A stretch of 64,000 nt of DNA from an uncultured virus (IMG/VR IMGVR_UViG_3300020469_000029) (IMGVR_UViG_3300020469_000029); one strand, 5' to 3'. Counted from the stretch's first letter, positions 1 to 38,576 are shown. The notes: generated from the sequence alone by a model not told the origin. Translations and numbers: made by a program.

Positions 1-50
1 TCAACCGACGATAAGGCATGTAAATCTATTCAACCAACGGAGTATTAACC

Positions 51-293: not shown

Positions 294-295
294 CA

Positions 296-634: not shown

Positions 635-674
635 TGCCCTATAATATAGATATCAAACGAATTCAAACCCATTT

Positions 675-22700: not shown

Positions 22701-25700
22701 CGTAATAAGAAAACATTCTACGGAAATCCAGTTTCTACCTTCCATACAATTGCTTCTAATAGATTCTTAGATGCAAAACGTACTATTGCCAATAATAAGC
22801 AAGAACTTATCGATTTTGCAGAAGCAAGTATTGCAATTGACTATCCAGACTACTATTTCCCATCTGACGTTATTACTAACTCTTGGAGTCGATTTAAAGA
22901 TGCTTACAGGATGATTCAGAAGAATAAGGCAATGATTGCTGGAATGGCGTTTGACGACATGAAAACCCAGTATCCATCTTCTTCTATTCCCTCAGATGCA
23001 AAATGTAAGCGAGATCTTGAATATTTCATAGATGCAGTTTCTATAGACATCTATGCTGGTGGAAATCGCTATTCTCGTAAATTTACACTTCAATACTTCG
23101 ATAGTCAAGGTGTTTTCCAATATGTTGATGGTGAGAAGGCAGAAACACGTTTTGCTTATGAAAAAGCAAAAGATCGCATGAAAGCAGCGATTACTAACCA
23201 ATATTCAGGTACAATCAATGCTGTAAACTCTGGAGACTCTTGGACTGGATATCAAGACCTTACAATCACAGCTGATCCAAATCCAGGTGGAAACTATGGA
23301 TCTACTGGATCTAATACTGCAAATGATGGTGTTGACAATTGCACAGACGTACAAGCAGCAATTACTACCCTTTGGGAATTTGTAGATGAAGCATTAAACA
23401 ATAGCAGTATTGCTGACATTCCTAGCGAATCATTAGGCACATATTCACCTCATCAAGAGAAATGCCGTCGTGACCTTGGATACTTCATTGATGCTATTGC
23501 TGAAGACGTTGGTCAAGGTGGTAACTATAATACAGTTGAATTTACTAAAAAATTCTTTAATGCAGATGGCACACCTCTAACTAACGGTGTTGTTGGAGAA
23601 GAAGCAGAAGCAGTCCATGCATTTACAACTGCTGGTACATTGATGTATAACGCAATTAATAACTTGATGTATTGGAAGGATCTTAGTGGGGTTGGATATA
23701 ACCTTAATGATCCTACTACTTACTCTGGTGGTGTTGCTCCTGCTAATCGTTACGATGCTAACTATGCATCTGGTAATAATCAGGATGTTAACAACTGTGC
23801 TAACGTTAAGTCTTATATTGATACGCTGAAAGCGATTGCTACCACTGCAATGACAGCAGGTAACTTAACTAACGTTAATGCACTTTCATCAATTACAGAC
23901 GGCACATTCCAAGATAGTGAGACTGTTAGGACAACTAAGATTGGTTATAAAAATAAAGGTACTGGATTGTTTATTACTGGAGAGCAAATTAAAGGTGTAT
24001 CTTCAGGAGCAATATTTGAAGCAATCGGAGTTAACTCTGGTTTAGGTTGGTTATTTGCTGGCACTGTTACTGGTACCTTTAATCAAGATGAGTATATTAC
24101 CAATTCTACATTAACTACCACAAATTGCACTCAAAGTGTTATTGTTAAAAAAGCAGAATTGAGTGGCACTAAATCTGTTTACATTCCTGCTAATGGAGTA
24201 TTATCATCTCCAGCAAGTGATGATTATGCATTTGGTACTGGAGACTTTACTTTATCTGGTTGGTTCCGTCCAGCAAATAATGTTGGCACACAATACCTTT
24301 GGGACTTCCGTCGTTTAGATGCTACCTCTGGTCTAAACATAAGAATGGATGGACAAGCAATTAAGGTTTATAACGGCACAACATTAGGTCTTTCTAGTGG
24401 TAATGTAGTTACAACAACTGGTGCTTGGACTCATATCGCTGTTGTTAGGACTTCTGGAATTACTCAGTTATATGTTAATGGTGCTCAACTAGGTGGTAAC
24501 TATGTTGACACTAACGATTATCTCTATGCTGCATTGTATCTTGGATGTGACTTCAACCAAGGATCTCATTGGACTGGACATGTAGATAATATATTAGTTA
24601 AGAAAGGAGTATCAGATTATAGTACTGGATTTACGGTTCCAACACAAGTAGACTATACAGAAACAGGTATAGTATTTGGTCTAGATGGTGAAGCACCATT
24701 CATCTTATCTACTGAAGAAACATATGCTCAATACAGTGGTCAGAGATCATCCTCTGCAACTGCTAAGAAAATTGATTATGCTGATAGAGCAGTTATTACT
24801 GAAGACGTTGATATAAGTCGTCAGGAATATAGAGATTGTGCTGACATGATTGACCTTAACGCTGCTTATATTGCTGAGGAAGCAGTAGGTAGAATGAAGG
24901 CAGCATTCGGTGATTTTGTTATTCGTGGTGATGTCCCTGCTCAGAATAGTTACGGTGGCACAAATACATGTATCAGAGATACTAAGGATTATATCCTCGG
25001 TGCTATTATTAAAGACCTTCATGAAGGTGGTAACTATCATACCATTTATACTGCTAGAACTTATCTAACAACAAGTGGTCAATTAGATCACATTAAAGAA
25101 GAGATTCTACAATCATTGTATACATGGAATGAAGTAGGTAAGATTGCTAAAGAAATCATAACAACTACCAGTACTACTCTAACAGGAACATATACAACTA
25201 GGTATAGAATACCAAATAACTTCTCATCTCCTGCTGCATCTGCTGTGCAAGATGAGCTTGATACTCTTGTTAATGACTTACTTAAAGTAATTGCTCCTAA
25301 TGATCAGAGATTTAGAGAAGGTGGATTCCAACTTTGGAAGAATAGAGATTATATTGCAGAAGAAGTTGCTGGATTTATTCAGAATAAGTATCAACAGACT
25401 ATTGATGGTGTTGTCTTTGACTTCCTTGAAATGCCTGGATATGGTCAACCATATTGTGAAAGAGATATTAAAGATTTCATACTTCCTGGTGTGATGTCTG
25501 ACCTTGTTACTGGTGGCACATATCAGACACAAGCAGTTATAGACAAGTATTTGGATAATAACGAAAATATACTTCATGTTGAGCATGAGCTTAATGCATT
25601 AAACGATGCATTTGCACATACTAAGATGCTTTGTATGAAGGCAGTTAATAACCTTCTAATGTCTCCTGGTGAAGTTGCTGCTGGATTACTCGATAATGAT

Positions 25701-28700
25701 GGTGTTGCATTAAGTGCACCTGCATGGTCACATGATGATTATCATGCTCCTTTATATACTACTCAATCTGCATATAGAGATTCTACTATTACATTAGATA
25801 CAGAAGGATATCCTAATGCTGCTACAAGAGCAAATCCTGATAGGTATCTTGATGCTGCTGATATTTTAGCGCATAACAAATCATTGATTGCAAGAGAAGT
25901 TGTATCATGCATGAATGACCTTTCTAAGTATGAGAATTTAGCAATTCCTGGTGGACATGTCAATTGTGAAGATGATGTTTTAGATATGATTGAAGCGATG
26001 GTACATGACCTTCGTTTAGATTGTAATGAGAAGGTATGGGATGCATCTGCATTATATGTTGAGACAGAGAATAACTCACTTAAGCATATTGAATCTGAGT
26101 GGGAAGCATCAATTACTGTAGTTAAGATTCTTAGAGATGTAGTTACTATGGCAATGCGTAATGCATTCGGTAGAGACTATATTGAGGGTGGAGAAAATAG
26201 TGTAGTAGAAGGTTATGAGTCTAATCCAAAAGATACAATCTACCAGTTATGTGGTGATGCCATTGACGGTAACATCAGATACATTGCAGAGCAAGCAGTT
26301 GCTGCTGGTTTAGTCCAATTCCCTAACTTAGCAATTCCTGGTGGTCCTAGCAATTGTGTCCATGACGTTACTGATATCTTAAGAGCATTGGTATTCAACC
26401 TTAAGTATGGTGGTAATAACTGGTTACAGTATGCATCTGAATTCTATACCAGTTACAATGGAAATCTAGATCATATTACTAATGCTCCTACAGAATCTAA
26501 CTGGATCATTAATAAGGCGAAGGAGTATGCAGTTCGTGCAATGAAAGGTCAAGTCATTGCTAATGATGCTGGTCATTTTGCAGATCAAAGAATTTATGAT
26601 GCTGTCCTAAGACCTACAACTGCACTTGTAACTTCTAGTGTGGATGGTCCCACTGCTACTGATTTTAATAATCTATTAACTAGATCATTTGATTCTGGAG
26701 AGAGTAAGATATCAACAGTTGATGTCGCTAATGGAGTAGCACCTGGAGAAGATGCTGTATTCCGTGTAGTTACTAAACTTCCAACATCTCCTATAGACGG
26801 TGTTATATTTGAAGCTGGTGGTACAGATGCTGGTGTTTGGTTTGGTGTCAGAGATAGTGGAACATACTTAAGATTACGTGCTGGTAATGGTGCTAATGCA
26901 TATTCTGCTGGTGCTTCATATGCTAGTGATACTGGTCTTGCAATGCTTGACTTACAGATTAGTAATCTATCAACATACTTTGATGGTGGAGATCATGAAT
27001 TGGTATGGCAGATTGCTATAGGTGGTAATCAAGCTTCTGGTAAGGGTAGAGTTGAATTGTGGATTGATGGTACTAGTGTTGGATCTGCTTCTACTCCTGG
27101 ATCTGGTTATACTGGTCTAAGTGGTGGTACTGGAATATTTGCTGGATCCAACTTTGCTGGATTTGGTATAATGGGTGGAAATCAAGTTACTAATGGAGAA
27201 GCATCTGCTTCTGTTATTAACACATTTAAGGTTAATGTTGGTCCTGCTCCAACTATCAAGTATGATGTTTCTGCTGCTGCATATGATTCATCTACTGGAG
27301 ACCTAGTATTAGATGTTGGATCACATAATCATACAGAAGGCACATTCCTTAGATTAGCAACTGACTCTATTAATTTCACATGTAATATGGATAATAATGT
27401 TTCAACACATTCTTATCCTAGATCTGGAGACCCTGCTGGTAATACTGCTGTAGAAGTACTAGAAGTATATGGCACTGAGTATAAGGCAACTGCTGCCACA
27501 TATACTCCAGATGACGGTATTATGAAATTAACCATTCCTAGTCATGGAATGACTAATCATAGTACTCATACAGTAACAAATTCTGCTTATGATCCAACTT
27601 CAGGTGTATTGCAGTTAACAATACCTTCTCATGGATTTAAGACAGGTGATCAAATTAGAATTGAAAATGGAGCTTTAGTATTCACATGCTCCCAAGATAA
27701 TCATGCTTCTAAGCATGGATATCCAAGACCAAAAGATCCAGCTGGAGATCAATGGTTATTAATTGAATCTGTCATTAGTGCTGATACATTTACTGTTAAT
27801 GTAGGATCTACACCTAAAGTTGAATATGATATTTCTGATGCTACTTACGATCAGAATACTGGCGAATTGGAAATGGAGATTGGTCAGCATCGTTTCGTTG
27901 GTGCTTCAACCCATGTAGCATCTTTTGCTGAGTATAATGCTGATAAGGGTACATTAAAACTAACTGTATCTGGTCATAAGATTGCACCTGGAGAGCAAAT
28001 ACAGATCTTGGAAAATTCCATGACATTTACTTGCTCAATGGATAATCATTATAGTGATCATGTATATCCAAGATCTTCCGACCCTTGCACACGTAAGTGG
28101 CTAGACGTAATTGAGTCTGATATTCCTGGTGGCACATTTGTTGTTAATGTAGGTAAGTCACCTATTAAAGGTTTTGTCCCTACTGCTGCTAATTTCAACA
28201 CTACTACTGGTGCTCTTCAACTATTCGTTGGATCACATACTTTAGCAGTTGGCACTAATATTAAGTTAGCACAAGGATCATTAACATTTACTTGTGATAT
28301 GGATGATCATGCAACCTTACATTCTTATCCTAGAAGTAAGGATCCAGTGCATAATGAGCCTATTGCTATTACTGCTACTACTTCAGATTCTATTACTGTT
28401 AACGTAGGTACTACACCACAAGTTAGATACAATATTTCTAATGCTACATTTACAGGAAATAACGGTAAGTTAGTATTAACTACAGACAGAAAATTTGGTT
28501 TCCGTGATTCATCTATACACAGTATTTCTAATGCAACCTTTGATGGTATGACTGGATTGATGAGATTGACTGTTGCTAATCATGGATTTAGTGAAGGTGA
28601 TAATATTAAATTAGATAATGGAGCAGTAACATTTACTTGCTCAATGGACAACCATGCAACAACTCATGCTTATCCTAGATCAACAGATCAGATGAGTGGT

Positions 28701-31700
28701 AAGTGGATGGCAGTCCGCAATGTATCTTTAGATTCATTTGATGTATTTGTAGGTAGGACACCTGCTATACCATTTACAATTGGAGCTGCTACTTTTGATC
28801 CTACTACAGGTTTGATGACAGCTACTATAGGTCATCATAATCTTAAGCAAGGACATAGTGTTAGATTAGCAACTAATTCTATTGTATTCACATGTTACTT
28901 GGATGCTCATAACAGCACTCATGCTTATCCTAGAGCAACAGGATCTAATTATTCTGGCAATAATGGTGCTGACCCATTCCATAATACATCAATAGAAATT
29001 TTATCTGTAACAGATACTACCATCACCTTTAATGTTGGTGCTGGATCTATCTCAGATCAGAGTGCACATATCTATATCCCTAATGCAGGGATGACTCCAA
29101 CTAATGTTAATCATAATCCTACTACAGGTGTTATGGTCGTTAGCGTACCTAATCATGGAATGGATGATGGAGATTATATTAAGATAGATGATAATGGATT
29201 AACATTTACATGTGCTTTAGATCAGTATGCAACTAATCATTCATATCCACGTCCTTCCGATCCTGCTTCAGGATCATGGTTGAAGATTTCTAATGTAACT
29301 ACAAGCACATTTGAAATTACAGTTAACACAACTATACCTCAAAGTAATACAGACACTCATCTATTTGTATCTGCTGTAGGTAACTGTATTACTAGAGCAC
29401 AGGTTGTAAGTGGCGGTGTTTATAACCATACTTACTCAACATCCGTTACTGATAGTTTACGTCATGCTGGTGATAGTATAAGACTCGCAGATGATTCTCT
29501 AACATTCCGTTGTGATGAAGATGGTCAGTCAAGTGACCACACTTATCCAAGAGCAGCTACAACATCCGTAACACCTAGTGATGTATCTTATGATCCTAAT
29601 ATAGGACATCTTAAGTTTACTGTTGCTAATCATAATTTCTTACCTTACTCATATGTTAAGATTGCAGATAACTCTTTGACATTCACATGTAAGAAAGATG
29701 CTGATGCGACTGACCACACATATCCAAGATCTACCGACCCTGTAAGTGGTAAGTGGATGATGATTCATGATGTAACTACAGACACATTTACTGTTGAAGT
29801 ATTAGATGTTATTCCATCTACAAATACTACAATTCATTCAATTGGTAATATTGCTGCAAACTGTATTACACATAAGAAGGATTACTTCTATGATACAAAT
29901 ATTCCTATCTACGAAGTAGGTAAGACAGATCATACTCCTACAAGTATCAGTTACAATCCTACTCATGGTTACATGCAAGTTACCATGACTAATAGTTTCA
30001 CTAATGCAACAGGAATGTCACCAACTGGTGCTACATTCTATCCTGCTACAGGTACTATAAGAATAGATCTTAATGGTCATACTGTTAAGAATGGAGATAT
30101 GATATTCATTAATGAGGGAGCATTTACATTCCGTTGTGATGAAGATAGTCAAGCATCTGACCACACATATCCAAGATCATCTGATCCTGCTAGTAATAAG
30201 TGGATGAAGGCATTTAATGTTGGTAGTAACTCATTCGATATCAACGTTGGTAACTTCTTAGGTGAAGGTGCTATTTCTAACACCACAACTCACGTTTGCA
30301 CAAGCATCGTTGGTGGATCAGTTTACAAAGCAAATGACTTTGTGATGTTTGATGAGAATGCAATTACATTTACTTGCACTAAGGATAACAATGCTACTAA
30401 CCACACATATCCTAGAAGATCAGATCCTACATTTGGTAAGTGGTTACCTATTGCTAATGTAACCAATACTGGTTTCACTGTTTGGGTTGGTAAATCTGGT
30501 GTTAATGATGTTTATGATCATACCTTTGTATCAGTCGCATCTAACGGTCTTAAGAGACAAACTGGAACTATTACATTAGATGTTGGTGACGGTGCTATTA
30601 CTAACACTACAACTCATGTATTCCAGAGTGCTTCTGCTAATGCATTAATTGGTGGTGGTACTTACACACATATCTTTAAACCATCAACTCAAACATACAC
30701 ACCTACAGGTGCTAATTACAGTCCAACAACGGGTGTGATGACTCTTACCATACCTAATCATGGATTCTTGGATGGAGAGAGTATCAAGATTGGACAGAAT
30801 TCATTAGTCTTTACATGTCTATTAGATGCTAATGGTAGTGACCACCCATATCCAAGAAATACTGACCCAGTATATGACAAGTGGCTCACTATTTCTAACT
30901 GCACAGATCATACATTTGATGTCCAAGTACTAGAGAATATTCCATCAACTAACACGACTCTTCATACATTTAAGAGTGCTCTAACTGGTGCTGTTACAAG
31001 AGCAACAGTTGCAACTGGTGGTAACTACACTCATAAGTTTGTTGCTCCTGCACAATTAACACCAACCAATGCATCATATATTCCTGCTACAGGTATTATG
31101 ACATTGACTGTTGCTGATCATGGTCTTAAGAATGGTAGCAGAATCATGGTGGAGGATGGATTCGTAACATTCACATGTGATCAAGATAGTGATCAAACTA
31201 ATCATGCTTATCCAAGAGCATCTGACCCATATAGTCAGCAGTGGATGGTAGTTAAAAATGTAACTAAAGATACATTTGATGTCCAAGTCTTATTCAATAT
31301 ACCTTCATCTAACACTACAACTCACGCATTTGTATCTGCTAGACCTCAGAGTATAACTGTTGCTACCTTATTCAAGGGTAATGATAGTATTAAGATTGCT
31401 GAGGGTGGTATAACATTTACATGCTCAATGGATGGTGGATCTTCATTGCATCCATATCCTCGCACAACTGATCCTGCATACAATGATTCACTTAGAATCG
31501 TTGATGATGGTATAACAAAATGGACACCAACTGCTGCTAGTTACACACCATCTACAGGTGTATTGGCATTGACAGTTAGTAAGCATGGATTCTCCAATGG
31601 TGACTATATTAGAATTGAAGATTATGCTTTGGACATGTCTTGTGATATGGATAATAATTCCAGTGATCATGCATACCCAAGAGGCACAGATCCTATCAGT

Positions 31701-34700
31701 GGTAAGTGGGTACAAATTTCTAACGTATCTACAGATGGATTCGATGTTAACGTAGGCATAACTGCTGCTGTTAATTACACTCCAACAGATGCAGATTATA
31801 CACCTACTACAGGTGAGATGGAAGTTACTATTGGTACTCATCCACTTAAGGTTGGTCAAAGTATTCAGATTGCTACAGGTGGTATAACCTTAGAATGTAG
31901 TCAAGACAGTTATGGATCAACACATGCATATCCAAGATCTACTGAAGATAGTTTCACTCCAACAAATGCTGTATATGTTGGAGAGACAGGTTACTTAACA
32001 ATTACTTCTAATGCTCATGGATTAGATGAAGGATCACTTGTTAAGATTGATGACAATGCAATAACCTTGCGTTGCACAATGGACGGAAGTCAACAAGACA
32101 AGACTTATCCTAGATCTTCTGATCCTATTAGTGGTAAGTGGAAGCCTATCGAGTATATCGATGCTAACACATACAAGATCTTTGTTGGTAAGTCTGAATT
32201 TAAGAGTTTCGATCCTCAAAATGTAGATTTTACTCCTGGAACAGGTGAAATGGTAGTTACTGTTGGTCCTGACCACGGTATTACAACTGCACACAGTGTT
32301 TATATTAACCGTGAATCAATGTGCTTTACTTGTGGGCAAGATTCCTACGGTAGTGATCACTTCTATCCACGTCCTAATGGTAGTGGTGGTGCAACAGGAG
32401 ATGATCCTGCATACGCTAATGCTGTTTCTGTCGTTTCTGTTAGTGATAGCACAATTACTCTTGACGTTGGTACTTCTTCTAACGTTACACCTCACGTATT
32501 CAAACCTGCTGTCGGTGTAACACCAACTGCAATTTCATATAGTGGTGCTACTGGTCTTATGACTGTTACCATTGCTAATCATGGAATGATAAATGGTGAG
32601 CAAATCATGTTTAATGATAACTCATTAATTTTCACATGTAATCAAGATAGTCATGCAACTGAGCATGCTTATCCTAGACATAGTGATTATGCAAGTAACA
32701 CATGGTTAACTATTCAGAATGTTTCTACCGATACATTCCAAGTACAAGTATTGGATAGTATACCTTCTACTAACGTAACTACTCATACATTTAAGAGAGC
32801 AAAGGTTGGTGCTGTTAAGAGAGGATCAATCAGAGGTGGTGGATCATTCACTCATAGTTTCCAATCATTCGCTTCTAATGGTCTTAAAGCGAAGAGAGAT
32901 AGAGCATACGATCATGCCCTTGAAATTAAGAAGGTTGGTCACGCTAAGTATTCAGCAACTGGTGCTGCTTACAATGCTGCTACTGGTATATTAACACTAA
33001 CAGTTGCTAACAACCCATTTGCAAATGGTGACCATGTAAGAATTGCTGACGATTCATTGGTCATGACTTGTGACATGGATAATAATGGATCTAATCATTC
33101 TTATCCAAGAGCAACAGATCCTGCTTCAGGTAAGTGGTTAGAAATCTCAGGTGTATCTGGCAATGACTTCAATGTTAATGTTGGCACTACACCTCGTGCT
33201 AACTACCTAGTTTCTGCTGCAACATATGAGCCTACTACAGGTGTCATGACAATGACTATTGGTGCTCACAACTATAATGCTGGTGAGTCAGTATACATTG
33301 AAGAAGAGTCACTAGTATTCAAGTGTCAAGCAGATAACTTTGGTAGTGAGCATAAGTATCCTCGTGCTAATGGTAATAGTGGTGCTACTGCTGATGACCC
33401 ATATTATGATGATGCATGTCCTATAATTTCCGTTACTGCTGACACTATAACAGTTAACGTTGGTATCTCTAGTAACGTTACAACTCACCAGTTTGTAAGA
33501 TCTGAAAATGCATTTACCCCAAGCACAGCTTCTTATGTCCCAGGTACAGGCGTATTAACAATAACTGTTAATGGTCACCCATTTGAGAATGGAGATAAGG
33601 TACAACTTAAGAATGGTGCATTTGTATTCGAGTGTAATGAGGATAGTTATGGATCTCTGCATCCATATCCTAGAGCACAAGATCCTGCTGCTGGCGAATG
33701 GTTAGTAATCTCTAATAAGCAAACAAATACATTTGATGTTAACGTAGGAGTTTCTTCTAACACTTCAACTCACCAGATTTCATCTATTGTTACAGGTGCT
33801 GTTATTAGAGGTACAATCCGAGGTGGTGGTGAATATACACACGCATTTGTCTCTGCTGTTGCTGATGGATTAGAGAAGAAGAATTCTACAATTACGGTGA
33901 ACGTGGGATCAACTGTTGCTGGTAATCATACACACAGATTTGCTTCTGCTACATCTGGTGCTATTACTGCTGGTGGTAACCACACTCACACATTTGAAAG
34001 ATTTAAGAATAAGTCTCTACACAGACAAAGTGGTAAGATTACAGTTAATGTAAATATTGCAGCATCTAACAATCTATACGATCATACATTTGCAAGTGCG
34101 TTACCTGGAGCAGTAATTGCTGGTGGTAAGTATCAACATGCATTTGTATCTGCTAAGACAGATGGTGTTTGGAAAGCAAATAGTTATATTAAGATTTCAG
34201 ATCATGCATTATCATTCCAATGTGATCTTGACAATTACGCTACAGATCACCTGTATCCTAGAGCAACTGACCATGCAAGTAATGAATGGTTAGCAGTATC
34301 TAATGTAGACGCTAATGGAAATGACTTTGAGGTACAAGTCCTTAAGGGTGTCCCATCAACCTTCTTAGGTGCACATACATTTGTATCCTGTATCGATGAC
34401 GGTATACAAATACAGAATGGTAAGATACGAGTTAATGTTGGTGTATCTCCTGCTGGTCAGACTTATCAACATACATTCGTAAGTGCAAACTCTGGATGTG
34501 TAATACAGGGTGGTAATTATAAGCACAATTTTGTGAGTGCTGCATCCAATTGTATTGAAGTAGTTAATGATGGCACTAAGTTAACACCTACAGATGCATA
34601 CTATGATCCAATTACAGGTGAGTTAACTCTAACTGTTGCTGGTCATAGTTTGAGAGCTGATGATGCTGTGATTATTGTTAGTAACGCACTAACATTTACA

Positions 34701-37700
34701 TGTAGTCAGGATAGTAATGCTACCAACCACACATACCCTCGTGTAACAGATTATGCTGATGGTAAAGTATTACCTGTATTGGGACTTACATCTTGGGCAT
34801 ATCCATTTAGATCTAAACTAGAATATTACAGACAACGTAGGGTTAGCACTGATTACACTGGTAATGAGGGATCTAATGTTGAGGCAGAAATTTCTACTTT
34901 GATGCAATTTGTAACTGATGCAATAACAACTCCTGCTAACGTTGCAACAAGATCTTACATAATGCCAACCATATGGCCTGTTAAGTATACTCCAGAAGTT
35001 ATGGTAAGGGATCTAACGATTACCTATGATACTGCTGCTGGTGGATCTGGAAGTAACGGCACTTGGAATCAAGTATGTGGTGAAGTAGCATCTGGTATAG
35101 ACACATTATCAGAGATTATTATTGATACAATATCTAAAGCAGCAAATGGTCAAGGTAATCATCTTGCTACTGTAACTAAAACATATCCATACAACTCTAA
35201 TGCAAATTATCAGGCAGGTACATGTTACAACGTAACATCTGCTATTGATACTGTATTCGATCTAATGATTGATGCATTGGGTGCTGGAGAAAATAATGCT
35301 AAAATGATATCTAATATGATATTATTCAATCAGCAAGCAATTGCTGCTAGAGCATTTGCAGATACACAAGCATCATATCCAACTACCAATCTTACTATTG
35401 ACTTTGCTAATAATGTAGTTAAGGGAGTCCGTTATGACTTAGTAACTAGTGGTAATGCTGGAGCATTTAGATTAGCACAAACATGGTTTGATGGTGAAGG
35501 CAACTTCATTGCATATAGCAACGTTACTAGAACACATCTATTATTCTGCTTATCTAAACTTCGTCAGTATTGTAAGAGTATATTATATGAGCCTGATGCA
35601 GCAGGATGGGCATCTTACGATGTATACATCCCATCAGATAGATTAGAGTGGAATCAAGAAGCAGCTGAGTTTGAAATTGATTCTTCACTTAACCCACTTG
35701 AGTTCTCATTGGAAATGTCACAATTCCCAACTGAAGCAAGGGCAACATTTATCGCATCTACTGATGCTCTTAACAGAGTTACTAAGAATGAGATGGGTGT
35801 TGATTACAACACAGATCCAGAATTGGTAAGTCTAACTCCAGAAATTAATGTAGGTTATGATCGTGCTGAGTATAGAGTTAGAATTTACCAACCTAACTTC
35901 TTCCGTCGTGGAGATGTATTACAATACATTCCAGCATCAGAGACTTCATTAACTGGTCTTTCTGGACAAGAATTCTTCTATTGTTTAACTGCTACATCTG
36001 AGTGGTTTGAAATAGGTGCTTCTTATATTCACGATGGTAGATTTAGAAAATTAGAAGTAGATAAGTCTAATAGTGGATCTCAGATCTTTGCGGTTGTAAG
36101 AAGATCAGGTGTTACTAGAACTGCTTCTACTTACCCAACAGATACTTCTGAGACACCAATACAAGGTGGATTCAATCCTGCTGATGTTATCTACGGATTT
36201 ACATCAAATGCAAATGCTGAAGTTGGTCAAGTATTGCAAAACGAAGGTAAGATTTATAAACTCTATACACATTATCCATCTGTTGCTGGTCAAACAATAC
36301 CTCCAACATATGACAATCTAACTAATGGTGAATTAGTCACTGTTGATGGTGCTCCATCAAACACTGGTTATGTTTTACAAACTGCTCAACCAAATAGTGA
36401 AACAGGTGCATCTATTGTTAAGATTCATACTATAGCTGGTACAATATCTGACACTAACGTTATTACTGGTGCTGATAGTGGCACTCAACATACACTTGGT
36501 GCACCATCTGATAGATTCTTAATTAACGTTGAGAATGGATCATTTGCTTCAGGTGATTGGTTCTTCAGTAAAGTTGGATCAGTTGAAGGTTATATGGATA
36601 ACTATGAATCTAAGTCTGGATCCATAACTGGTAATGATGGTGGTAGAATTACGATGGATGTTGAGACCTTACAAGGTCAATGGGATATTGGAGATCTAAT
36701 CTACGGTAGTATTACAGATTACATTTTAGAGATTAAGGGTATTACTGGTACACAGATTCAATTGAATCAGTATCTACATGGAGTGCAGACTCTAGAGTTA
36801 GATCTAGGTGTAGCAATAATTGATACTGGTATCACAGATACATTTAATGTTGGTGATGAAGTAAGTCTTCTACAAGGTACTATTCAAAAGAATCCAGGAT
36901 TCACTGCTATAGTTACTAAGTATCAACCTGAAGATTTAACTGCAACTCCACCGCTATCACACAAACTCTGGATTGCTAACTTAAATGATGTTGGTGTTGG
37001 TGCTGCTATAAGTGAATTAACACAAGCAGGTAACCATATTGGTAAGATAGAATTGGGATCTAACTTCCCAACAATATATGCTGGTGTATCAGGTTACACT
37101 GCAACAGACTATCAGTCTTATGGTAAGGTTGTTGCAATAGAGCAACAAGGTATTACTGCTACAATATGGATAGAGAATGCTAATGGCACATTTGTTGATA
37201 ACATGTCACTTAAGTCTGACTTTGGATGGGGTGGTGGAGTTTCTAAAGCTAAGACTTTAGAAGGTAGAGTTGATCGTTACTTCCGTGGATTTGATGGCAC
37301 TCAATCAACATTCGACTTAACCATCTCTAATGGTCAGGCATACTATCCAGATCCTGCTGGTCACTTACTAGCATTCGTTAATGGAATCTTGCAACCTCCT
37401 GGCGGTAACCAATCTTACGTTGCATTCTCAGACAAGATACAATTCTCTGAACCACCTGAAATTGGATCTGAGTTTATTGGATACTACGTTGGTAAGTTAC
37501 GTCAGTTAGATGATATCTCCTTCGAGTTTGACTCATTGAGATCCTCATTCAACCTTAAGCGTCAGGGTCTATTCTACTCCTTGACACTGACTGAAGGTGT
37601 TTCCTCTAACGTTATACGTCCTGAGAATAACATTATCGTTTCACTTAACGGTATCATTCAGGAACCAGGAGTTGCATATGAGATCGTTGGATCACGTATC

Positions 37701-38576
37701 ATCTTCGCTGAAGTCCCACGTGCGGGATCAACCTTTGTTGGTTTCTCATATATTGGATCTGACGCAGACGTTATTGCAGCAACAGTTGTCCCACCAATTG
37801 AAGCTGGTGACAGATTGGATATTGACGGTGAGGAATTCCCTCGTGAAGTTGCTCTAATTGAGTCTTCTAACTCACTAATCACATTTGAATATACTGGATC
37901 TGTTAAGGGTAGAAACGCAGCTGCTCTTGCTAATATAACTTCTGGTCAAATTACTAATGCCATAATAACCAATCCTGGCGATGGTTACTCCTCACGACCT
38001 AATGTTGACGTTATCTCTTCCTCTGGATTTGATTCACGTATTACAGCATTAATGGGTATTACTAGAATTGATGTTAAGACTTCTGGTAGTAATTACGCTG
38101 CACCATCCGTACTTATTGATAATGAAGTACCTGATGACTTTACACCTCCTACAGGCGGTGCAATTAACGGTGGATTTGATGTCCTCGCAGGCGAAGGTCC
38201 ATCAGGAGGCGAAGGTGGCGGTGGAGTTGATCCTGGCACAATTGCAATTACTCAAGATCCAGTTAACGTAACAGTTAACCAAGGTCAGACTGCTGGATTC
38301 ACAGTCGTCTCAACTGTTACTAACAGTCAGACAATGAATTATCAGTGGCAGAAGAAGGAGTATGGCACACAGACATGGAGCAACATTATTGGTGCTAACC
38401 AAGCAACATACTTAACAAATAATGCTGCACAGGCAGATGATGGAGATGAATTTAGAGTCGCTATCACTGCTGCTGGTGCAACCCCAGTTTACTCACTCTC
38501 TGCAATATTGAGTGTCCAGACTGGTGCTACTGTAATCAGTAACTTCACACCTAACCTCATCTTCGATGACATCTAA
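10779..38576 (+). CDS. gp7: giant gp7-like baseplate wedge initiator (9265 aa) with many inserted adhesin/repeat domains
   Basis: between gp6 and gp8; core motifs QLPEFI...FL.EYY, FY.SKGT..A..YLFKILFGE (~12900), QDS.FYQ.FSY...HPAG.NMFG (~21504); also YHYH-like, propeller-like, LamG-like, CBM-like and Ig-like segments. Confidence 0.88.
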   Translation: MPITKNINVSDRVENQLPEFIRQEDRQLVNFLFEYYKSQEKTGRPYDILNNLLRYLDLDSYTSEQLASATELLKDIGVYDKKIEIESINGFKEQDGSIMIDNEVIYYESVTRGPDVIITPGLSYPQFNKKKQQLENPFNLFDGTLKNFPLSFLGTPVAPTSADHLIVVTYNNMKVPGVDYFVEGQNIRFTDAPRDQVGSDDSEFTEITYLVGYSDQTIKTADAIPYQEWQNTKIYPLRISGVSYTPTSEVGLIINKNGRLQIPYEDFTVFEDTIVFKNEIGAADDIHIRSVEYIPPSYGSGASAIAKVSDTGTITSLITKSGGSKYRLDFAPKVTITSTSGKNSTARSLIGGIKDINLIDGGQGYTSYNPPIPIVAAPGNSNGTSAKLSLTVDDTTGMIDSITITDSGSGYDFIPAISFKNPSGADIGTPTIDSEGRVNIGSIVVNEMGTGYSNPPVVYIDEAPIGGINAQAISRINQDGQVYEIQIVNRGRGYVTPPRVKIIDPVGAQILDVTVASGSVTNIEMLTGGQGYTDAPSVYIVDDRKDGYGEPIGGIGAKAAATIFNGEITDINITDFGSGYSETEPPKIYIAEPKAARSSVDVGFDQVTGFDILEDGAGYSPSAFLGCARGVSGAVGYDNLHNEIYAGEAALRQTNHHSGAAVTNLDSLFIKEVFDKFRRQYLPTLDIDFSKVNPVQVIKNISDFYISKGTELATQYLFKILFGENVSLYYPKDEIISPSHATWVVDTILRAELIEGDPANLIDSQVNQYADDVDSSVTNASALIENVITIIEGTDTIYELAISEETLTGNFIIPYKTRLVEPLTTSGQIITVDSTIGWPERNGTIRINDVEQVQYKEKSLNQFIECTRSKNGIVEDWDPGTIIQSDIFVYVNQGTSTECKLRILGIAEAGTTVLNDTGSYYIAGDKLKVANLGSTAEELRLQSWLYNVKKLIQVTTITPGGVNNQTATVVCNNPHGLLVSDQVTIYGANPVVYNGTFTVTSRIDQFTFSYQINTPTDLVPQGNILLSVDLNRGKSDITSINNVVSEFTTNIQNAFFNDNYVYVAASGLPNYKIGPFTGSALIPGNQRKLLRFPRIVQTISERKTIDPGTPIGAWVNGVSIWSYKSREFIQYGPLTSITVTNVGESYDAGAKPNVEITGGGGTGATAEVIVNGSLVSFDMTTEGTGYTESPLVSIVGGGGSGATAQAVITGGRVTRILVEQPGTGYTTQPLVSITGGNGTGATATANVRGSISSVNITNFGNGYTSLPSVKVNSGEGALAQPIVINGRIVSIAIINSGESYTTAPNIIINGDGFGAIAKATIGTVGEDRGRVLGVTITNKGIGYTQGLTTVRLEAVGQLASFTPTVYQWNKNLEYELGANGDKFDDARGYVFTGYNNQFGGEYAHLSDPKELRYVVGDNVFLNPVTQNFQELAANYLHSPIIGWAFDGNPIYGPYGYIDPTDQNSGIRRMRTSFKLKSNVVYDEATNPNPSRVDGPPIATYAPGTFVDDYYYDFQSGDLDNYNGRFCKTPDFPDGVYGYFVTIDASDAGIPEYPYIMGPQFNSLPDSWNFSQLATQENIPDGVVRYRDPYTDVDIDVDRQPNQEADVFTTEIEGYPIIFEIQDSNNDGLIDANEQQELLQMSEESTLQIYDYFPRVSEESRVDIEVDTTTQFENAQIDGFVIENPGVSYQVNDTVFFDNENTGGFGASALIESVKGQAIIGYTKSIIGDRCYGNITTSVGHELRQQDEIIVNSRPVIDNTSKTYKVKVVAGVERINVTQAGTGYNTDIPPTFELITTSGQDAELQLVLEGTGQINSINIINSGNGYSSTTPPQIRVSHPQQFKKTRYWLTEYTEAAGSVSVWDSWTTADRVTYICGSVLETDGDQSAILAKFDDLGQLVWERNLIPQNSGTKKMEFVKMYIDESLENDVIYLVGQTYDPNNAAYNPDVWLGQYKSGFNNANAPDGILQWQRSIAGISGLARRDYVTSIALDQEKRIYIAGYTDSNSPDPDDMWIIQCDMDGDLVEKRKIASADDSEMINQIKWISDDRFFFVGVNKQNNDCIFGVFFYDGANIEIEYIRQIPTIGGYVRNPQFVIDEYNDVLLIWDVYNSATTKYEKIQLNKFPISTANTAWEWTKTVTVSGSIDSIRHAGLNVDVFGNYSLVSDIIESENQRYSVIHYLKYDGTVIKETKVDDTVNIGFQAKSHTVDNSGDCIIAVDRRQSDQMASYRFNDVADLDYDFTKQNLATMTLHTPSNASVDASIYKFGTSSLKLSGVCPVKLPAYALQSTEWSMRAWMAMATAHHASTTKPLLFDVTPVAGDSIQVELDGDSTSGNYGKVVLYVNSVQVATSVANTYWTNFGSAAWVHVTFQKREESLGLYQYEVFLNGNLVVNYQSTSDISIQDLTVAGKYSGPNTGNSFIGWIDDLVIDDVAPYTSSYTPPTAEIAITTSISDVALIKFDRKHEKRAAYTLTGLTKYTNVEFSDIETATTWVDLTVSAFSPWIVGAGGLQILDMSQTVATYIPGTYTFTSVKNEYATKTSTIPSPLGKKLTISADVISKFYLRDAGYSKIDNVLEFTFNQDVKLTKGSIIQQFTTTAGNDVVAGFGTIVDIPNADSLTNPGMGNKYKVGKIFGTFNNTDRFKTDVADVNQIAGTYFSVEEAEIPWAASTSVTTGEKRYYDKKIYQSQGTGTTGTIPPVHTGGVVTDGLINWAFVDDAGKFTVDLTEHPYPMPQYLGNDMPEWDNGKLYVVGQKVWHKLNVYVVGAGGAGVSGTTAPVHTTGAVSDGGVTWTWESTSTPISDFARTLPYDIGNNYTVQIVEIQPGSTYIPEDVVSINAGNITEADDEKSVTISGFASVKKIRITARLEKDILRTADVRTNLVYSTSLTPHRFLADEIIYTEGFQGDQFNGSFFVDQVIGSREFTFGIRDVASQDPTFDSSSIANVNIYAKHPTLEFTRNHQYVFDLSDTSNLGYYLSFSQDNQYKLEYSFNNITRSGTPGIPEAGANYPFVKFSVLGDVTNISYYFDPSRTGSTSPVGDNSFIDVITTPYEGTFAISQIISDTEFQFPLLKEPERTSAEVGTDEFGNVYSYYSTTSIRAVGPINTIKLVSPGGFYQKLPIISDIASYRQIEKITVVDGGTEYAPGVYYEVPVNGDGEGGKATITVEFDAEVGSGTITNAQVADPGKGYTIASVDIDSIPGILGQTLAGSGGAVSVVIPEEGSGASVFLTGTNIGKIKRLKNNEFGFGYSHDYTLKPEITFPVNLQLFNTSILSQIKITDPGSGYTSTPAVVIEGGGGAGAEAEAIVKNNRLSEIIIKNSGAGYSSEPVVTLKSEFNYVVNLDLNYLQFNFPHGITTGAEVQFRAEDIGNTEGELPKPSTAGLTSLVANQTYYAIAGDAAGLESDQLRFGLTSASALAGSYITFLTTGSGRQVLLTEVFGGKAIAVVETSRFLEGESVFQGPNVEQSTATGKVSTNTGWQIGPKILKIVDYTGDWAQGEKVTGEISKASGLIDNLSIARGVLNIGSLTKTPGRFIDDVGKPSEIVQKIQDSFFYQNFSYVVQSEIPITEWKTQVLENNHPAGFNMFGQLQLTGGKDVSGRKIGTEFTKQVNINNYSNVNQITSFGAAQPIYTDYNNTEVLFRKKRLTSSEEILTSIVKKLDSVQDQFDGIKKSFPITVEGETVIIKDNQLMITLNGVIQSPGESYQVVGGNLVFAEPPKPPSKVNYRTLTVTPTIIYRIALYDGFGTSNYGIFPTLGQQVQGQNTDTIATVIDSGTNHIDVISLTGTFDLNEQIKRGELFVALIESVTALSSPTIFEFGEAITNLEGDTAYIEETNIDNAGNITDRLVVSKTSGTPKFETGIFDLRLNEMVYSASSKIAGQITFIAPYEDPINNEVVEELIINKGTTFFGLLFERLVSLTNPNVILDDISQSSITPTELYDAEQRINADFLNFEEVRTTEVTYSAITGGTLSEGMIIRNKKTFYGNPVSTFHTIASNRFLDAKRTIANNKQELIDFAEASIAIDYPDYYFPSDVITNSWSRFKDAYRMIQKNKAMIAGMAFDDMKTQYPSSSIPSDAKCKRDLEYFIDAVSIDIYAGGNRYSRKFTLQYFDSQGVFQYVDGEKAETRFAYEKAKDRMKAAITNQYSGTINAVNSGDSWTGYQDLTITADPNPGGNYGSTGSNTANDGVDNCTDVQAAITTLWEFVDEALNNSSIADIPSESLGTYSPHQEKCRRDLGYFIDAIAEDVGQGGNYNTVEFTKKFFNADGTPLTNGVVGEEAEAVHAFTTAGTLMYNAINNLMYWKDLSGVGYNLNDPTTYSGGVAPANRYDANYASGNNQDVNNCANVKSYIDTLKAIATTAMTAGNLTNVNALSSITDGTFQDSETVRTTKIGYKNKGTGLFITGEQIKGVSSGAIFEAIGVNSGLGWLFAGTVTGTFNQDEYITNSTLTTTNCTQSVIVKKAELSGTKSVYIPANGVLSSPASDDYAFGTGDFTLSGWFRPANNVGTQYLWDFRRLDATSGLNIRMDGQAIKVYNGTTLGLSSGNVVTTTGAWTHIAVVRTSGITQLYVNGAQLGGNYVDTNDYLYAALYLGCDFNQGSHWTGHVDNILVKKGVSDYSTGFTVPTQVDYTETGIVFGLDGEAPFILSTEETYAQYSGQRSSSATAKKIDYADRAVITEDVDISRQEYRDCADMIDLNAAYIAEEAVGRMKAAFGDFVIRGDVPAQNSYGGTNTCIRDTKDYILGAIIKDLHEGGNYHTIYTARTYLTTSGQLDHIKEEILQSLYTWNEVGKIAKEIITTTSTTLTGTYTTRYRIPNNFSSPAASAVQDELDTLVNDLLKVIAPNDQRFREGGFQLWKNRDYIAEEVAGFIQNKYQQTIDGVVFDFLEMPGYGQPYCERDIKDFILPGVMSDLVTGGTYQTQAVIDKYLDNNENILHVEHELNALNDAFAHTKMLCMKAVNNLLMSPGEVAAGLLDNDGVALSAPAWSHDDYHAPLYTTQSAYRDSTITLDTEGYPNAATRANPDRYLDAADILAHNKSLIAREVVSCMNDLSKYENLAIPGGHVNCEDDVLDMIEAMVHDLRLDCNEKVWDASALYVETENNSLKHIESEWEASITVVKILRDVVTMAMRNAFGRDYIEGGENSVVEGYESNPKDTIYQLCGDAIDGNIRYIAEQAVAAGLVQFPNLAIPGGPSNCVHDVTDILRALVFNLKYGGNNWLQYASEFYTSYNGNLDHITNAPTESNWIINKAKEYAVRAMKGQVIANDAGHFADQRIYDAVLRPTTALVTSSVDGPTATDFNNLLTRSFDSGESKISTVDVANGVAPGEDAVFRVVTKLPTSPIDGVIFEAGGTDAGVWFGVRDSGTYLRLRAGNGANAYSAGASYASDTGLAMLDLQISNLSTYFDGGDHELVWQIAIGGNQASGKGRVELWIDGTSVGSASTPGSGYTGLSGGTGIFAGSNFAGFGIMGGNQVTNGEASASVINTFKVNVGPAPTIKYDVSAAAYDSSTGDLVLDVGSHNHTEGTFLRLATDSINFTCNMDNNVSTHSYPRSGDPAGNTAVEVLEVYGTEYKATAATYTPDDGIMKLTIPSHGMTNHSTHTVTNSAYDPTSGVLQLTIPSHGFKTGDQIRIENGALVFTCSQDNHASKHGYPRPKDPAGDQWLLIESVISADTFTVNVGSTPKVEYDISDATYDQNTGELEMEIGQHRFVGASTHVASFAEYNADKGTLKLTVSGHKIAPGEQIQILENSMTFTCSMDNHYSDHVYPRSSDPCTRKWLDVIESDIPGGTFVVNVGKSPIKGFVPTAANFNTTTGALQLFVGSHTLAVGTNIKLAQGSLTFTCDMDDHATLHSYPRSKDPVHNEPIAITATTSDSITVNVGTTPQVRYNISNATFTGNNGKLVLTTDRKFGFRDSSIHSISNATFDGMTGLMRLTVANHGFSEGDNIKLDNGAVTFTCSMDNHATTHAYPRSTDQMSGKWMAVRNVSLDSFDVFVGRTPAIPFTIGAATFDPTTGLMTATIGHHNLKQGHSVRLATNSIVFTCYLDAHNSTHAYPRATGSNYSGNNGADPFHNTSIEILSVTDTTITFNVGAGSISDQSAHIYIPNAGMTPTNVNHNPTTGVMVVSVPNHGMDDGDYIKIDDNGLTFTCALDQYATNHSYPRPSDPASGSWLKISNVTTSTFEITVNTTIPQSNTDTHLFVSAVGNCITRAQVVSGGVYNHTYSTSVTDSLRHAGDSIRLADDSLTFRCDEDGQSSDHTYPRAATTSVTPSDVSYDPNIGHLKFTVANHNFLPYSYVKIADNSLTFTCKKDADATDHTYPRSTDPVSGKWMMIHDVTTDTFTVEVLDVIPSTNTTIHSIGNIAANCITHKKDYFYDTNIPIYEVGKTDHTPTSISYNPTHGYMQVTMTNSFTNATGMSPTGATFYPATGTIRIDLNGHTVKNGDMIFINEGAFTFRCDEDSQASDHTYPRSSDPASNKWMKAFNVGSNSFDINVGNFLGEGAISNTTTHVCTSIVGGSVYKANDFVMFDENAITFTCTKDNNATNHTYPRRSDPTFGKWLPIANVTNTGFTVWVGKSGVNDVYDHTFVSVASNGLKRQTGTITLDVGDGAITNTTTHVFQSASANALIGGGTYTHIFKPSTQTYTPTGANYSPTTGVMTLTIPNHGFLDGESIKIGQNSLVFTCLLDANGSDHPYPRNTDPVYDKWLTISNCTDHTFDVQVLENIPSTNTTLHTFKSALTGAVTRATVATGGNYTHKFVAPAQLTPTNASYIPATGIMTLTVADHGLKNGSRIMVEDGFVTFTCDQDSDQTNHAYPRASDPYSQQWMVVKNVTKDTFDVQVLFNIPSSNTTTHAFVSARPQSITVATLFKGNDSIKIAEGGITFTCSMDGGSSLHPYPRTTDPAYNDSLRIVDDGITKWTPTAASYTPSTGVLALTVSKHGFSNGDYIRIEDYALDMSCDMDNNSSDHAYPRGTDPISGKWVQISNVSTDGFDVNVGITAAVNYTPTDADYTPTTGEMEVTIGTHPLKVGQSIQIATGGITLECSQDSYGSTHAYPRSTEDSFTPTNAVYVGETGYLTITSNAHGLDEGSLVKIDDNAITLRCTMDGSQQDKTYPRSSDPISGKWKPIEYIDANTYKIFVGKSEFKSFDPQNVDFTPGTGEMVVTVGPDHGITTAHSVYINRESMCFTCGQDSYGSDHFYPRPNGSGGATGDDPAYANAVSVVSVSDSTITLDVGTSSNVTPHVFKPAVGVTPTAISYSGATGLMTVTIANHGMINGEQIMFNDNSLIFTCNQDSHATEHAYPRHSDYASNTWLTIQNVSTDTFQVQVLDSIPSTNVTTHTFKRAKVGAVKRGSIRGGGSFTHSFQSFASNGLKAKRDRAYDHALEIKKVGHAKYSATGAAYNAATGILTLTVANNPFANGDHVRIADDSLVMTCDMDNNGSNHSYPRATDPASGKWLEISGVSGNDFNVNVGTTPRANYLVSAATYEPTTGVMTMTIGAHNYNAGESVYIEEESLVFKCQADNFGSEHKYPRANGNSGATADDPYYDDACPIISVTADTITVNVGISSNVTTHQFVRSENAFTPSTASYVPGTGVLTITVNGHPFENGDKVQLKNGAFVFECNEDSYGSLHPYPRAQDPAAGEWLVISNKQTNTFDVNVGVSSNTSTHQISSIVTGAVIRGTIRGGGEYTHAFVSAVADGLEKKNSTITVNVGSTVAGNHTHRFASATSGAITAGGNHTHTFERFKNKSLHRQSGKITVNVNIAASNNLYDHTFASALPGAVIAGGKYQHAFVSAKTDGVWKANSYIKISDHALSFQCDLDNYATDHLYPRATDHASNEWLAVSNVDANGNDFEVQVLKGVPSTFLGAHTFVSCIDDGIQIQNGKIRVNVGVSPAGQTYQHTFVSANSGCVIQGGNYKHNFVSAASNCIEVVNDGTKLTPTDAYYDPITGELTLTVAGHSLRADDAVIIVSNALTFTCSQDSNATNHTYPRVTDYADGKVLPVLGLTSWAYPFRSKLEYYRQRRVSTDYTGNEGSNVEAEISTLMQFVTDAITTPANVATRSYIMPTIWPVKYTPEVMVRDLTITYDTAAGGSGSNGTWNQVCGEVASGIDTLSEIIIDTISKAANGQGNHLATVTKTYPYNSNANYQAGTCYNVTSAIDTVFDLMIDALGAGENNAKMISNMILFNQQAIAARAFADTQASYPTTNLTIDFANNVVKGVRYDLVTSGNAGAFRLAQTWFDGEGNFIAYSNVTRTHLLFCLSKLRQYCKSILYEPDAAGWASYDVYIPSDRLEWNQEAAEFEIDSSLNPLEFSLEMSQFPTEARATFIASTDALNRVTKNEMGVDYNTDPELVSLTPEINVGYDRAEYRVRIYQPNFFRRGDVLQYIPASETSLTGLSGQEFFYCLTATSEWFEIGASYIHDGRFRKLEVDKSNSGSQIFAVVRRSGVTRTASTYPTDTSETPIQGGFNPADVIYGFTSNANAEVGQVLQNEGKIYKLYTHYPSVAGQTIPPTYDNLTNGELVTVDGAPSNTGYVLQTAQPNSETGASIVKIHTIAGTISDTNVITGADSGTQHTLGAPSDRFLINVENGSFASGDWFFSKVGSVEGYMDNYESKSGSITGNDGGRITMDVETLQGQWDIGDLIYGSITDYILEIKGITGTQIQLNQYLHGVQTLELDLGVAIIDTGITDTFNVGDEVSLLQGTIQKNPGFTAIVTKYQPEDLTATPPLSHKLWIANLNDVGVGAAISELTQAGNHIGKIELGSNFPTIYAGVSGYTATDYQSYGKVVAIEQQGITATIWIENANGTFVDNMSLKSDFGWGGGVSKAKTLEGRVDRYFRGFDGTQSTFDLTISNGQAYYPDPAGHLLAFVNGILQPPGGNQSYVAFSDKIQFSEPPEIGSEFIGYYVGKLRQLDDISFEFDSLRSSFNLKRQGLFYSLTLTEGVSSNVIRPENNIIVSLNGIIQEPGVAYEIVGSRIIFAEVPRAGSTFVGFSYIGSDADVIAATVVPPIEAGDRLDIDGEEFPREVALIESSNSLITFEYTGSVKGRNAAALANITSGQITNAIITNPGDGYSSRPNVDVISSSGFDSRITALMGITRIDVKTSGSNYAAPSVLIDNEVPDDFTPPTGGAINGGFDVLAGEGPSGGEGGGGVDPGTIAITQDPVNVTVNQGQTAGFTVVSTVTNSQTMNYQWQKKEYGTQTWSNIIGANQATYLTNNAAQADDGDEFRVAITAAGATPVYSLSAILSVQTGATVISNFTPNLIFDDI
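22758..35700 (+). repeat. helical protein repeats (DA..I..N...IA / C-x-R-D...GGN / closing helix), interrupted by inserts
   Basis: KCKRD 23001, KCRRD 23460, TCIRD 24966, YCERD 25452, NCEDD 25962, NCVHD 26352; closing helices at 34875-35279. Confidence 0.75.
27213..34790 (+). repeat. 24 nested copies of a ~105-aa beta-domain (A-x-Y-x-P-x-T-G...H-G / F-T-C-x2-D-x6-H-x-Y-P-R / V-N-V-G / H-x-F)
   Basis: 24 C-x2-D...YPR cores counted in the translation; opening and closing segments balance. Confidence 0.9.

Follow-up and report, generated by a model that had tools for sequence, protein, structure and literature searches.

A self-nested array of predicted beta-barrel domains in a gp7-like baseplate wedge protein of a marine cyanophage

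Published accounts of small domains inserted into further copies of themselves concern mainly a single cellular enzyme. In cyanobacterial RNA polymerase, the Si3 insertion is reported to comprise eight SBHMs, four of which are discontinuous and assembled from distant parts of the chain (PMC10895346), and the insertion of HABAS domains into other HABAS domains, at times with swapped strands, has been described for the same element (PMC11515920). A 2026 survey of 2.7 million domains gives a six-level nested structure as its most complex case, and its main text does not contain the word 'phage' (PMC13114784). Here we analyze a stretch of 64,000 nucleotides from an uncultured virus (IMG/VR IMGVR_UViG_3300020469_000029), hereafter the window, with positions counted from its first letter. 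One of its open reading frames (ORFs), encoding a probable gp7-like baseplate wedge protein, carries at 27264..34538 (+ strand, residues 5496-7920) what its sequence indicates to be a single-chain, self-nested array of like domains whose fragments are ordered as balanced brackets, so that recursive insertion here appears to build part of a virus particle.

The array resembles Si3 of cyanobacterial and plastid RpoC2 (beta') in that a small beta domain is inserted into itself, with discontinuous domains and branching. It differs from it in its host, a virion baseplate protein instead of the trigger loop of the polymerase, and in being larger and deeper, with 24 domains and a depth of 9 against the 8-12 domains and 6 levels given for Si3; unlike Si3, it also differs between close relatives by insertions of whole domains. 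The architecture, which an initial annotation of this DNA had believed to be undescribed, is already known from Si3 (PMC11515920, PMC13114784, PMC10895346). Leaving aside the supplementary tables of PMC13114784, our literature search found no published description of recursive self-insertion in a protein of the phage particle. Note that chains of RNA polymerase or of biotinyl/lipoyl proteins (SBHM/HABAS, CATH 2.40.50.100) are absent among the structural matches listed for the two models described below; the unit may nevertheless be related to the domains of Si3. We consider it probable that the region is a self-nested array of beta barrels within a gp7-like protein, that it has grown by insertion and that its split copies refold. 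The nested array itself is real and statistically solid, and its physical closure is partly supported.

The repeat unit was defined by a hidden Markov model (HMM) that was iterated with HMMER from one copy (residues 6638-6760), unsupervised and without hand segmentation, to a final length of 117 positions. The unit comprises about 95 residues, and its model falls into part A (positions 1-24), a hairpin with the pattern Y.P.TG.L.LT..HG and the consensus LTPTAASYDPTTGVLTLTVANHGL; part B (25-54), a hairpin plus loop with the pattern G..I.I...L.FTC..D......H.YPR and the consensus KEGDSIKIADNSLTFTCSQDNNASDHAYPR; and three single strands, part C (55-73; DP...W..I, consensus STDPASNKWLEISNVTSDT), part D (74-81; F.VNVG, consensus FTVNVGKT) and part E (82-105; H.F.SA, consensus IASSNTTTHTFVSAVSGAVTRATV). 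An extra segment F (106-117; consensus VAGGKYTHAFVS), present in eight copies, echoes the H.F.S pattern of E. Four positions are nearly invariant, H24 at the end of part A and C43, D46 and H52 within part B, the latter also containing a conserved G-D (consensus KEGDSIKI).

As evidenced by searches with the segment models, part B occurs 24 times in the array (41.5-54.5 bits) and nowhere else in the 9,265 residues of the protein. Part A likewise gave 24 matches, 23 of them at 19.5 bits or more and a single weak one at 3.2 bits, and the 24 exact YPR motifs of the protein all lie within residues 5546-7986. Pfam returned nothing at or above its cut-off for the array region and NCBIfam nothing relevant for the repeat unit, while PHROGs place the unit inside long families labeled 'tail fiber', 'virion structural' and 'baseplate wedge'. 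When 1.84 billion representative proteins were searched with the profile, 746 matched at E <=0.001, many of which run to thousands of residues, and the nearest record (G001) contains 24 matches to the unit, all in one open frame. In a sequence-profile search of the PDB the unit (profile positions 11-54) gave a weak match to an iota-carbonic anhydrase (7c5x_A 97-140, E 7e-5), in which no stretch passed alone.

HMMER local matches carry model coordinates that tell which part of the unit each fragment represents, and the resulting tokens were parsed with a stack. The full balance claimed in the initial annotation from a hand parse did not emerge at once. The first fully automatic run produced two violations, because a weak orphan A (residues 5886-5901) had been absorbed as the tail of the preceding copy; once a match to segment A was allowed to override a worse E tail, the parse gave 24 domains, 6 of them split, with no violation. 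The orphan in question resembles the hairpin of the copy that follows it, both reading ISNATF.G..G...LT, and it is conserved in orthologues. Under this parse, 341 of 200,000 shuffled orders of all tokens were valid, as were 320 of 200,000 when the fragments only were shuffled.

Seven copies end at D with a new A directly after them. In an extended parse the short GG.Y.H.F segment, F, was treated as a second E-like strand belonging to an earlier copy, and all seven D-ending copies were then closed by an E-like strand exactly when they stood at the top of the stack. The eight longer continuations all fit the top of the stack, as do seven of the eight E-like closers, and no continuation is mismatched. 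The core array, counted without the last, unpartnered E-like strand and without domain 24, consists of 38 tokens, 28 of which are partial units that pair last-in-first-out and do not follow one another head to tail as in a plain tandem array; none of 300,000 shuffles of these 28 non-leaf tokens, with the same two exclusions, gave a valid order. A letter-level grammar parse by segment HMMs alone was dropped, as the 8-residue D model performed at noise (-3 to 2.7 bits).

In the tree thus obtained 13 of the 24 copies are interrupted, and each fragment that resumes picks up the HMM at the point where its open copy had broken off. The maximum depth is 9, ten copies are uninterrupted A-E leaves (domains 9, 10, 11, 13, 14, 15, 19, 20, 22 and 23), and seven hosts carry at least two children (domains 4, 5, 7, 8, 17, 18 and 21). 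The branched tree of like domains on a single chain and the last-in-first-out resumption that had been read from the sequence by eye are thereby borne out, now with 24 copies from an unsupervised model, and a depth of 11, 5 branch nodes and 7 leaves give way to the figures above. Interruptions occur in four loops, A/B, B/C, C/D and D/E, with break points at HMM positions 17-28, 55-57, 67-74 and 81-85, and additionally at position 43 in the orthologue L036. These are four of the five break points proposed earlier; the fifth, a separate E/F break, was rejected, since F makes better sense as an E strand belonging to another domain.

The layout of the array, all on the + strand, is given here according to the extended parse unless otherwise stated; the region originally singled out, 27213-34790, corresponds to residues 5479-8004. 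A D-like strand, FKVNVG (27225..27242, residues 5483-5488), was read from the sequence just ahead of the first copy and scores -1.2 bits with the D model. Domain 1 opens with A-C (27264..27482) and is broken at C/D, domain 2 opens with A (27483..27563, broken at A/B), domain 3 with A-D (27570..27812, broken at D/E) and domain 4 with A (27828..27899, broken at A/B), followed by A-D of domain 5 (27921..28160) and of domain 6 (28176..28424), both broken at D/E. The weak orphan hairpin at 28434..28481 is part A of domain 7. Next come A-D of domain 8 (28524..28760, broken at D/E), leaf 9 (28776..29078), leaf 10 (29091..29405) and the E-like strand that closes domain 8 (29406..29438). Domain 7 resumes with its B (29445..29555) and, after leaf 11 (29571..29876), with a weak C (29877..29927, beginning KDYFYDTNIPI). 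Part A of domain 12 (29934..29996, broken at A/B) precedes leaf 13 (30015..30332), and B-E closes domain 12 (30312..30560, the start of the HMM alignment overlapping the end of domain 13) before D-E closes domain 7 (30558..30647). Domain 7, with its pieces at residues 5886, 6230, 6367 and 6594-6623, is the very example given in the initial annotation, which had it open at 28419, resume at 29469 and 29877 and close at 30561-30650.

E-like strands then close domain 6 (30648..30680) and, after leaf 14 (30696..31010), domain 5 (31011..31043). Leaf 15 (31059..31382) is followed by B-C of domain 4 (31371..31502), which is broken again at C/D, by A-D of domain 16 (31524..31769, broken at D/E), by A-B of domain 17 (31776..31946, broken at B/C) and by A-D of domain 18 (31953..32204, broken at D/E). 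Leaves 19 (32211..32513) and 20 (32520..32831) precede the E-like strand closing domain 18 (32832..32867). Part C of domain 17 (32901..32948, beginning RDRAYDHALEI) was read from the sequence and is mapped by position only. A-D of domain 21 (32952..33200, broken at D/E), leaf 22 (33210..33503) and leaf 23 (33513..33818) lead to a run of closing fragments, namely the E-like strand of domain 21 (33819..33854), D-E of domain 17 (33879..33965), the E-like strand of domain 16 (33966..33998), D-E of domain 4 (34026..34115), the E-like strand of domain 3 (34116..34151), B-E of domain 2 (34173..34409), some 2,200 residues beyond its part A, and D-E of domain 1 (34407..34502), some 2,300 residues beyond its part C. 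Together with a last E-like strand (34503..34538) these fragments, residues 7681-7920, are the 'stacked closers' noticed earlier at about 33825-34565. Domain 24 (34584..34793), with A-C and no D or E found, stands after the closed tree.

The only candidate partner of the last E-like strand is the FKVNVG strand ahead of domain 1, and the two (34503-34538 and 27225-27242) might clamp both ends of the 2,400-residue array.

Relatives of the array preserve the tree and add to it. Among 53 loci fetched as relatives, 17 orthologue rows could be aligned, at 56-84% identity, with the 754-residue block of domain 7, and all 17 keep its fragment order; two partial rows (78% and 88% identity) were added to give 19 rows for the analysis of conservation. 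In 13 of the 17 rows an extra complete domain (A-E, about 105 residues) sits exactly at the C/D loop of domain 9, and the other 4 lack it, as does the window. In locus L036, an insert of 211 residues, made up of two nested copies, sits precisely in the A/B loop of domain 22, a leaf in the window; the complete array of L036 parses into 27 domains with a depth of 10, all 11 continuations and 7 closers fit, and 1 closer is unpartnered. When 11 complete orthologue arrays were parsed automatically, 5 were free of mismatched continuations (L036, L045, L046, L048 and L049). These differences between relatives show the gene to have grown, and apparently still to be growing, as whole copies are inserted into four loops of copies already present, and the clean one- and two-domain insertions at the same loops would represent the growth process caught underway. 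The comparison of tree topology between orthologues that the initial annotation had suggested thus shows a conserved tree, with growth in addition. A comparison of the domain 7 block with the domain 17 block as possible duplicated subtrees gave several shifted alignments that score alike, at 27-33% identity.

Two details of the L036 insert (approximately L036:15377-16010) stand apart. It splits its outer copy within part B, after 'FNC' (HMM position 43), and within it an E-like strand (THAFVSG) precedes the inner, D-ending copy, an arrangement that might be a circular-permutation-like closure.

For the fold of the unit we modeled leaf 14 with AlphaFold2 and a 61-row alignment of paralogues and homologues, and obtained an all-beta structure with a predicted local distance difference test score (pLDDT) of 89.9 and a predicted template modeling score (pTM) of 0.78. 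Its strands comprise residues 7-11, 16-20, 31-34, 39-43, 51-54, 65-67, 75-79, 92-97 and 102-104 (model residue number equals HMM position + 2), and all break points of the array, as well as the one at position 43 in L036, fall between predicted strands. When the F segment at 31011..31043 was folded together with the domain preceding it, domain 14, its pLDDT reached only 57-75, in line with F being part of a different copy.

The leaf aligns best with single small barrels from other proteins, namely the phi92 endosialidase (4hiz), the K1F endosialidase (1v0e; endoNF, 3gvk) and the FCCH domain of ubiquitin E1 (4p22, 2v31). The phi92 barrel (4hiz_A 257-340) matches leaf residues 1..107 with Z 7.5, an rmsd of 2.1 and 77 aligned residues, and 4p22_B matches the leaf with Z 7.7, an rmsd of 2.6 and 75 aligned residues. 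At 12-17% identity these scores are common for unrelated small barrels; the known barrels are also without the C..D......H.YPR motif, and they occur singly in their proteins and are not self-nested. The endosialidase and E1 FCCH barrels are themselves inserted into a larger host domain. A Foldseek search of the leaf against the PDB gave no match at E <=0.001, the best being 4hiz_A at E 1.6e-2 with a TMq of 0.52.

The nested block at residues 5883-6636 (754 residues) was modeled in one piece with AlphaFold2, at pLDDT 77.6 and pTM 0.63; the orphan hairpins have a pLDDT of 83-91, that of domain 7 lying at 83-88. In this model structural matches were followed through the residue ranges reported by VIA-align. 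The phi92 barrel (4hiz_A 255-340) matches model residues 28..350 with Z 8.4, an rmsd of 2.1 and 79 aligned residues, and UBA1/UBA6, endoNF and the FCWL1 chain likewise match both the leaf and the nested model. Model residues 32-113 are A-D of domain 8 and residues 328-340 the E-like strand after domain 10, so that the range 28..350 takes in domain 8 together with a strand some 220 residues further on, and the model completes the barrel of domain 8 as the parse predicts; further matches of domain 8 give a range of 28..348 or reach model residues 348-351. The barrel of domain 8, split at D/E, is thus predicted to be completed from further down the chain.

The two parts of domain 1, A-C (80 residues) and D-E-F (47 residues), which lie about 2,300 residues apart in the chain, were docked as separate chains with an 8-row alignment each and scored 0.44, against 0.01 for the best control. 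Of 157 solved complexes 116 reach the mark applied, as do 2 of 215 mismatched pairs; note that scores at or below 0.60 account for 18 of the 157 solved complexes and for both of the mismatched pairs that pass. Contact agreement in the docking runs was at least 89% and partner pLDDT at least 57. That rejoined fragments adopt the leaf fold is accordingly supported in part, by the model and its alignment ranges in the case of domain 8 and, weakly, by docking in that of domain 1, and the other split domains presumably re-form the same fold.

In the mechanism that we propose, whole copies or already nested groups would have been inserted into the A/B, B/C, C/D and D/E loops of existing copies, and growth by insertion at these four loops makes the array read as balanced brackets. 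The first and last strands of the barrel would lie side by side, which would allow a copy to fit into a loop without straining its host. Interrupted copies would still fold, their distant fragments meeting again, so that the chain would branch into a tree of barrels instead of running like beads on a string; this we infer with fair support. The nearly invariant histidine at the end of part A and the cysteine, aspartate and histidine of part B (H24, C43, D46 and H52) may, speculatively, form a putative metal site stabilizing each barrel.

A number of observations weigh against this reading. Balanced order follows from any history of whole-unit insertion and is no proof that the hosts still fold. 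The parse had to be amended after its two initial violations, and the amendment rests on a 3.2-bit match. Part C of domain 7 (residues 6367-6383) scores -3.0 bits and that of domain 17 (residues 7375-7390) is undetected by the HMM; the two are mutually alike (D..YD....I..VG) and were placed by position and conservation. The eighth E-like strand (residues 7909-7920) is without a partner inside the array, and domain 24 (residues 7936-8005) is incomplete. When the orphan A and B parts paired by the stack were compared by their affinities to 20 contiguous copies, the pairing ranked 6 of 24 permutations, a result that carries no weight either way, with a baseline correlation in contiguous copies of only 0.17. 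One D-ending copy of L036 never receives an E-like strand, and 6 of the 11 orthologue arrays contain 2-5 mismatched continuations (L034, L038, L041, L042, L043 and L047); for two of these six, L034 and L041, the mismatches were traced to weak, undetected fragments that are present in the alignment. On the structural side, the copies split at A/B, B/C and C/D (domains 1, 2, 4, 7, 12 and 17) are without a VIA match comparable to that of domain 8, the only hint for domain 7 being one weak alignment, to 6h9v_A (Z 3.7, 80 aligned residues over the range 1..746). All structural matches have Z <=8.4, a range common for small barrels and for models without a clear relative, and the verdict on the docked halves of domain 1 is 'weak support'.

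The order of the fragments could also be nested while the folded product is interdigitated, with domains swapping strands with their neighbors, as has been reported for parts of Si3, to give a compact rod or block. The pTM of 0.63 for a piece of 754 residues suggests fixed relative positions, some VIA rows span odd ranges such as 114..329, and the misplaced E-like strand of L036 points in the same direction. All 15 placed fragments, however, fit a strict last-in-first-out order, as predicted for discrete closure, and the match of domain 8 is about equal to that of a contiguous leaf in aligned length (79 against 77) and rmsd (2.1), and we therefore hold interdigitation to be unlikely.

Alternatively, the interrupted copies might be dead hosts, their orphan pieces being mere linkers between intact inserted domains. 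Whole-unit insertions produce bracket order whatever the fate of the host fold, and two orphan C pieces have drifted past detection by the HMM. Such pieces are nevertheless conserved like leaves, with a mean identity across the 19 orthologue rows of 0.73 for orphan fragments against 0.72 for leaves; the drifted C of domain 7 is in fact the most conserved piece of all at 0.88, and in the orphan B of the same domain the motif residues C, D and H and the YPR are invariant. Considering further the high pLDDT of the orphans, the confinement of break points to loops and the docking of the domain 1 halves, weak as its support is, we regard dead hosts as quite improbable. An ordinary tandem array with random partial deletions, in which the nesting would be chance or over-reading and for which the common family of all copies and the failure of the first automatic parse might be cited, has practically no probability left and was rejected because the segment counts balance, A, B and YPR numbering 24 each where deletions would unbalance them, and also fails to account for the absence of valid orders among 300,000 shuffles and for the same tree in orthologues at 56-88% identity.

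Returning to the self-nested array with refolding copies, its setting is that of a baseplate gene. The ORF in question (10779..38576, +) encodes 9,265 residues in one frame, and its N-terminal 1,200 residues match phrog_701 and phrog_19630 (both E 0), while residues 622-1073 match phrog_2885, 'baseplate wedge subunit' (E 1.3e-143); the Pfam family PF23786 (Baseplate_wedge) reaches 19.9 bits, under its cut-off of 27. Upstream ORFs match PHROGs of the PAAR (phrog_281), gp25 (phrog_261, 8238-8651) and gp6 types (phrog_219, 8653-10773), and downstream follow phrog_677, phrog_708 and phrog_438 together with further wedge, fiber-connector, neck and sheath-stabilizer genes. The position of the giant ORF fits the order of a baseplate module, after gp25/gp6 and before gp8-gp11-like genes. 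A tblastn search of the array region against 50,697 phage records matched 320, all at less than 60% identity, whose names divide into Synechococcus (240), Cyanophage (49), Prochlorococcus (22) and Marine (9), and some of the matches, in P-SSM4 and S-SSM7, coincide with genes that carry the annotation 'gp7: baseplate wedge initiator'. The isolate Syn30 is also among the records matched.

On the grounds of the PHROG matches, the neighboring genes and the GenBank annotation of relatives, we identify the array gene as the probable gp7-like baseplate wedge gene of a T4-like marine cyanophage, in keeping with the baseplate location first suggested. It shares with gp7 of T4 the position after gp25/gp6-like genes, the match to phrog_2885 and the annotation of its relatives. 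T4 gp7 has a length of about 1,030 residues against the 9,265 of the present protein, and we know of no counterpart in it to the nested array or to the YHYH and Laminin_G_3 domains described below. The nested unit is absent from the other ORFs of the window, where the best E-value is 0.039.

As to function, six trees, one per wedge, might project from the baseplate rim as rigid peripheral structures that touch or sense the host surface, a role that we put forward tentatively. It is likewise doubtful that this is the deepest self-nested protein known (9-10 levels, 24-30 domains), that it exemplifies a general and still active growth mode of virion proteins, and that rigid, branched and possibly metal-stabilized trees on six wedges bear surface-variable tips as a multivalent sensor of the host surface. 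On this model, branched density would be expected at the rim of the baseplate in these abundant ocean viruses. Nesting of this kind would also explain why giant cyanophage genes defeat ordinary domain annotation, and the array may serve as a natural template for the design of branched single-chain proteins.

Several other features were noted in the window. Upstream of the wedge genes lies an ORF of 1,385 residues (3336-7493) that matches the unnamed phrog_22792, followed by the PAAR-like ORF of 177 residues (7493-8026; phrog_281, E 1.7e-18). Two further giant ORFs, at 45138-52496 (2,452 residues) and 53076-60767 (2,563 residues), match PHROGs whose function is either unknown or given in general terms as structural, and the nested unit was not found in either. 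Within the gp7-like ORF itself, a YHYH domain (PF14240, E 8.4e-26) occupies residues 1399-1544 (window about 14973-15410), and a Laminin_G_3/concanavalin-like domain (PF13385, E 1.5e-13) lies at residues 4483-4605 or thereabouts (window about 24225-24593). The Pfam family 'Phycobilisome' (PF00502) matches at approximately residues 4041-4141 (window about 22899-23201) with 24.1 bits against a cut-off of 22.2 (E 4e-5); this match, odd for a baseplate protein of a cyanophage, sits among repeated helical units with the motif C.RD..YFI.A...D...GGN.

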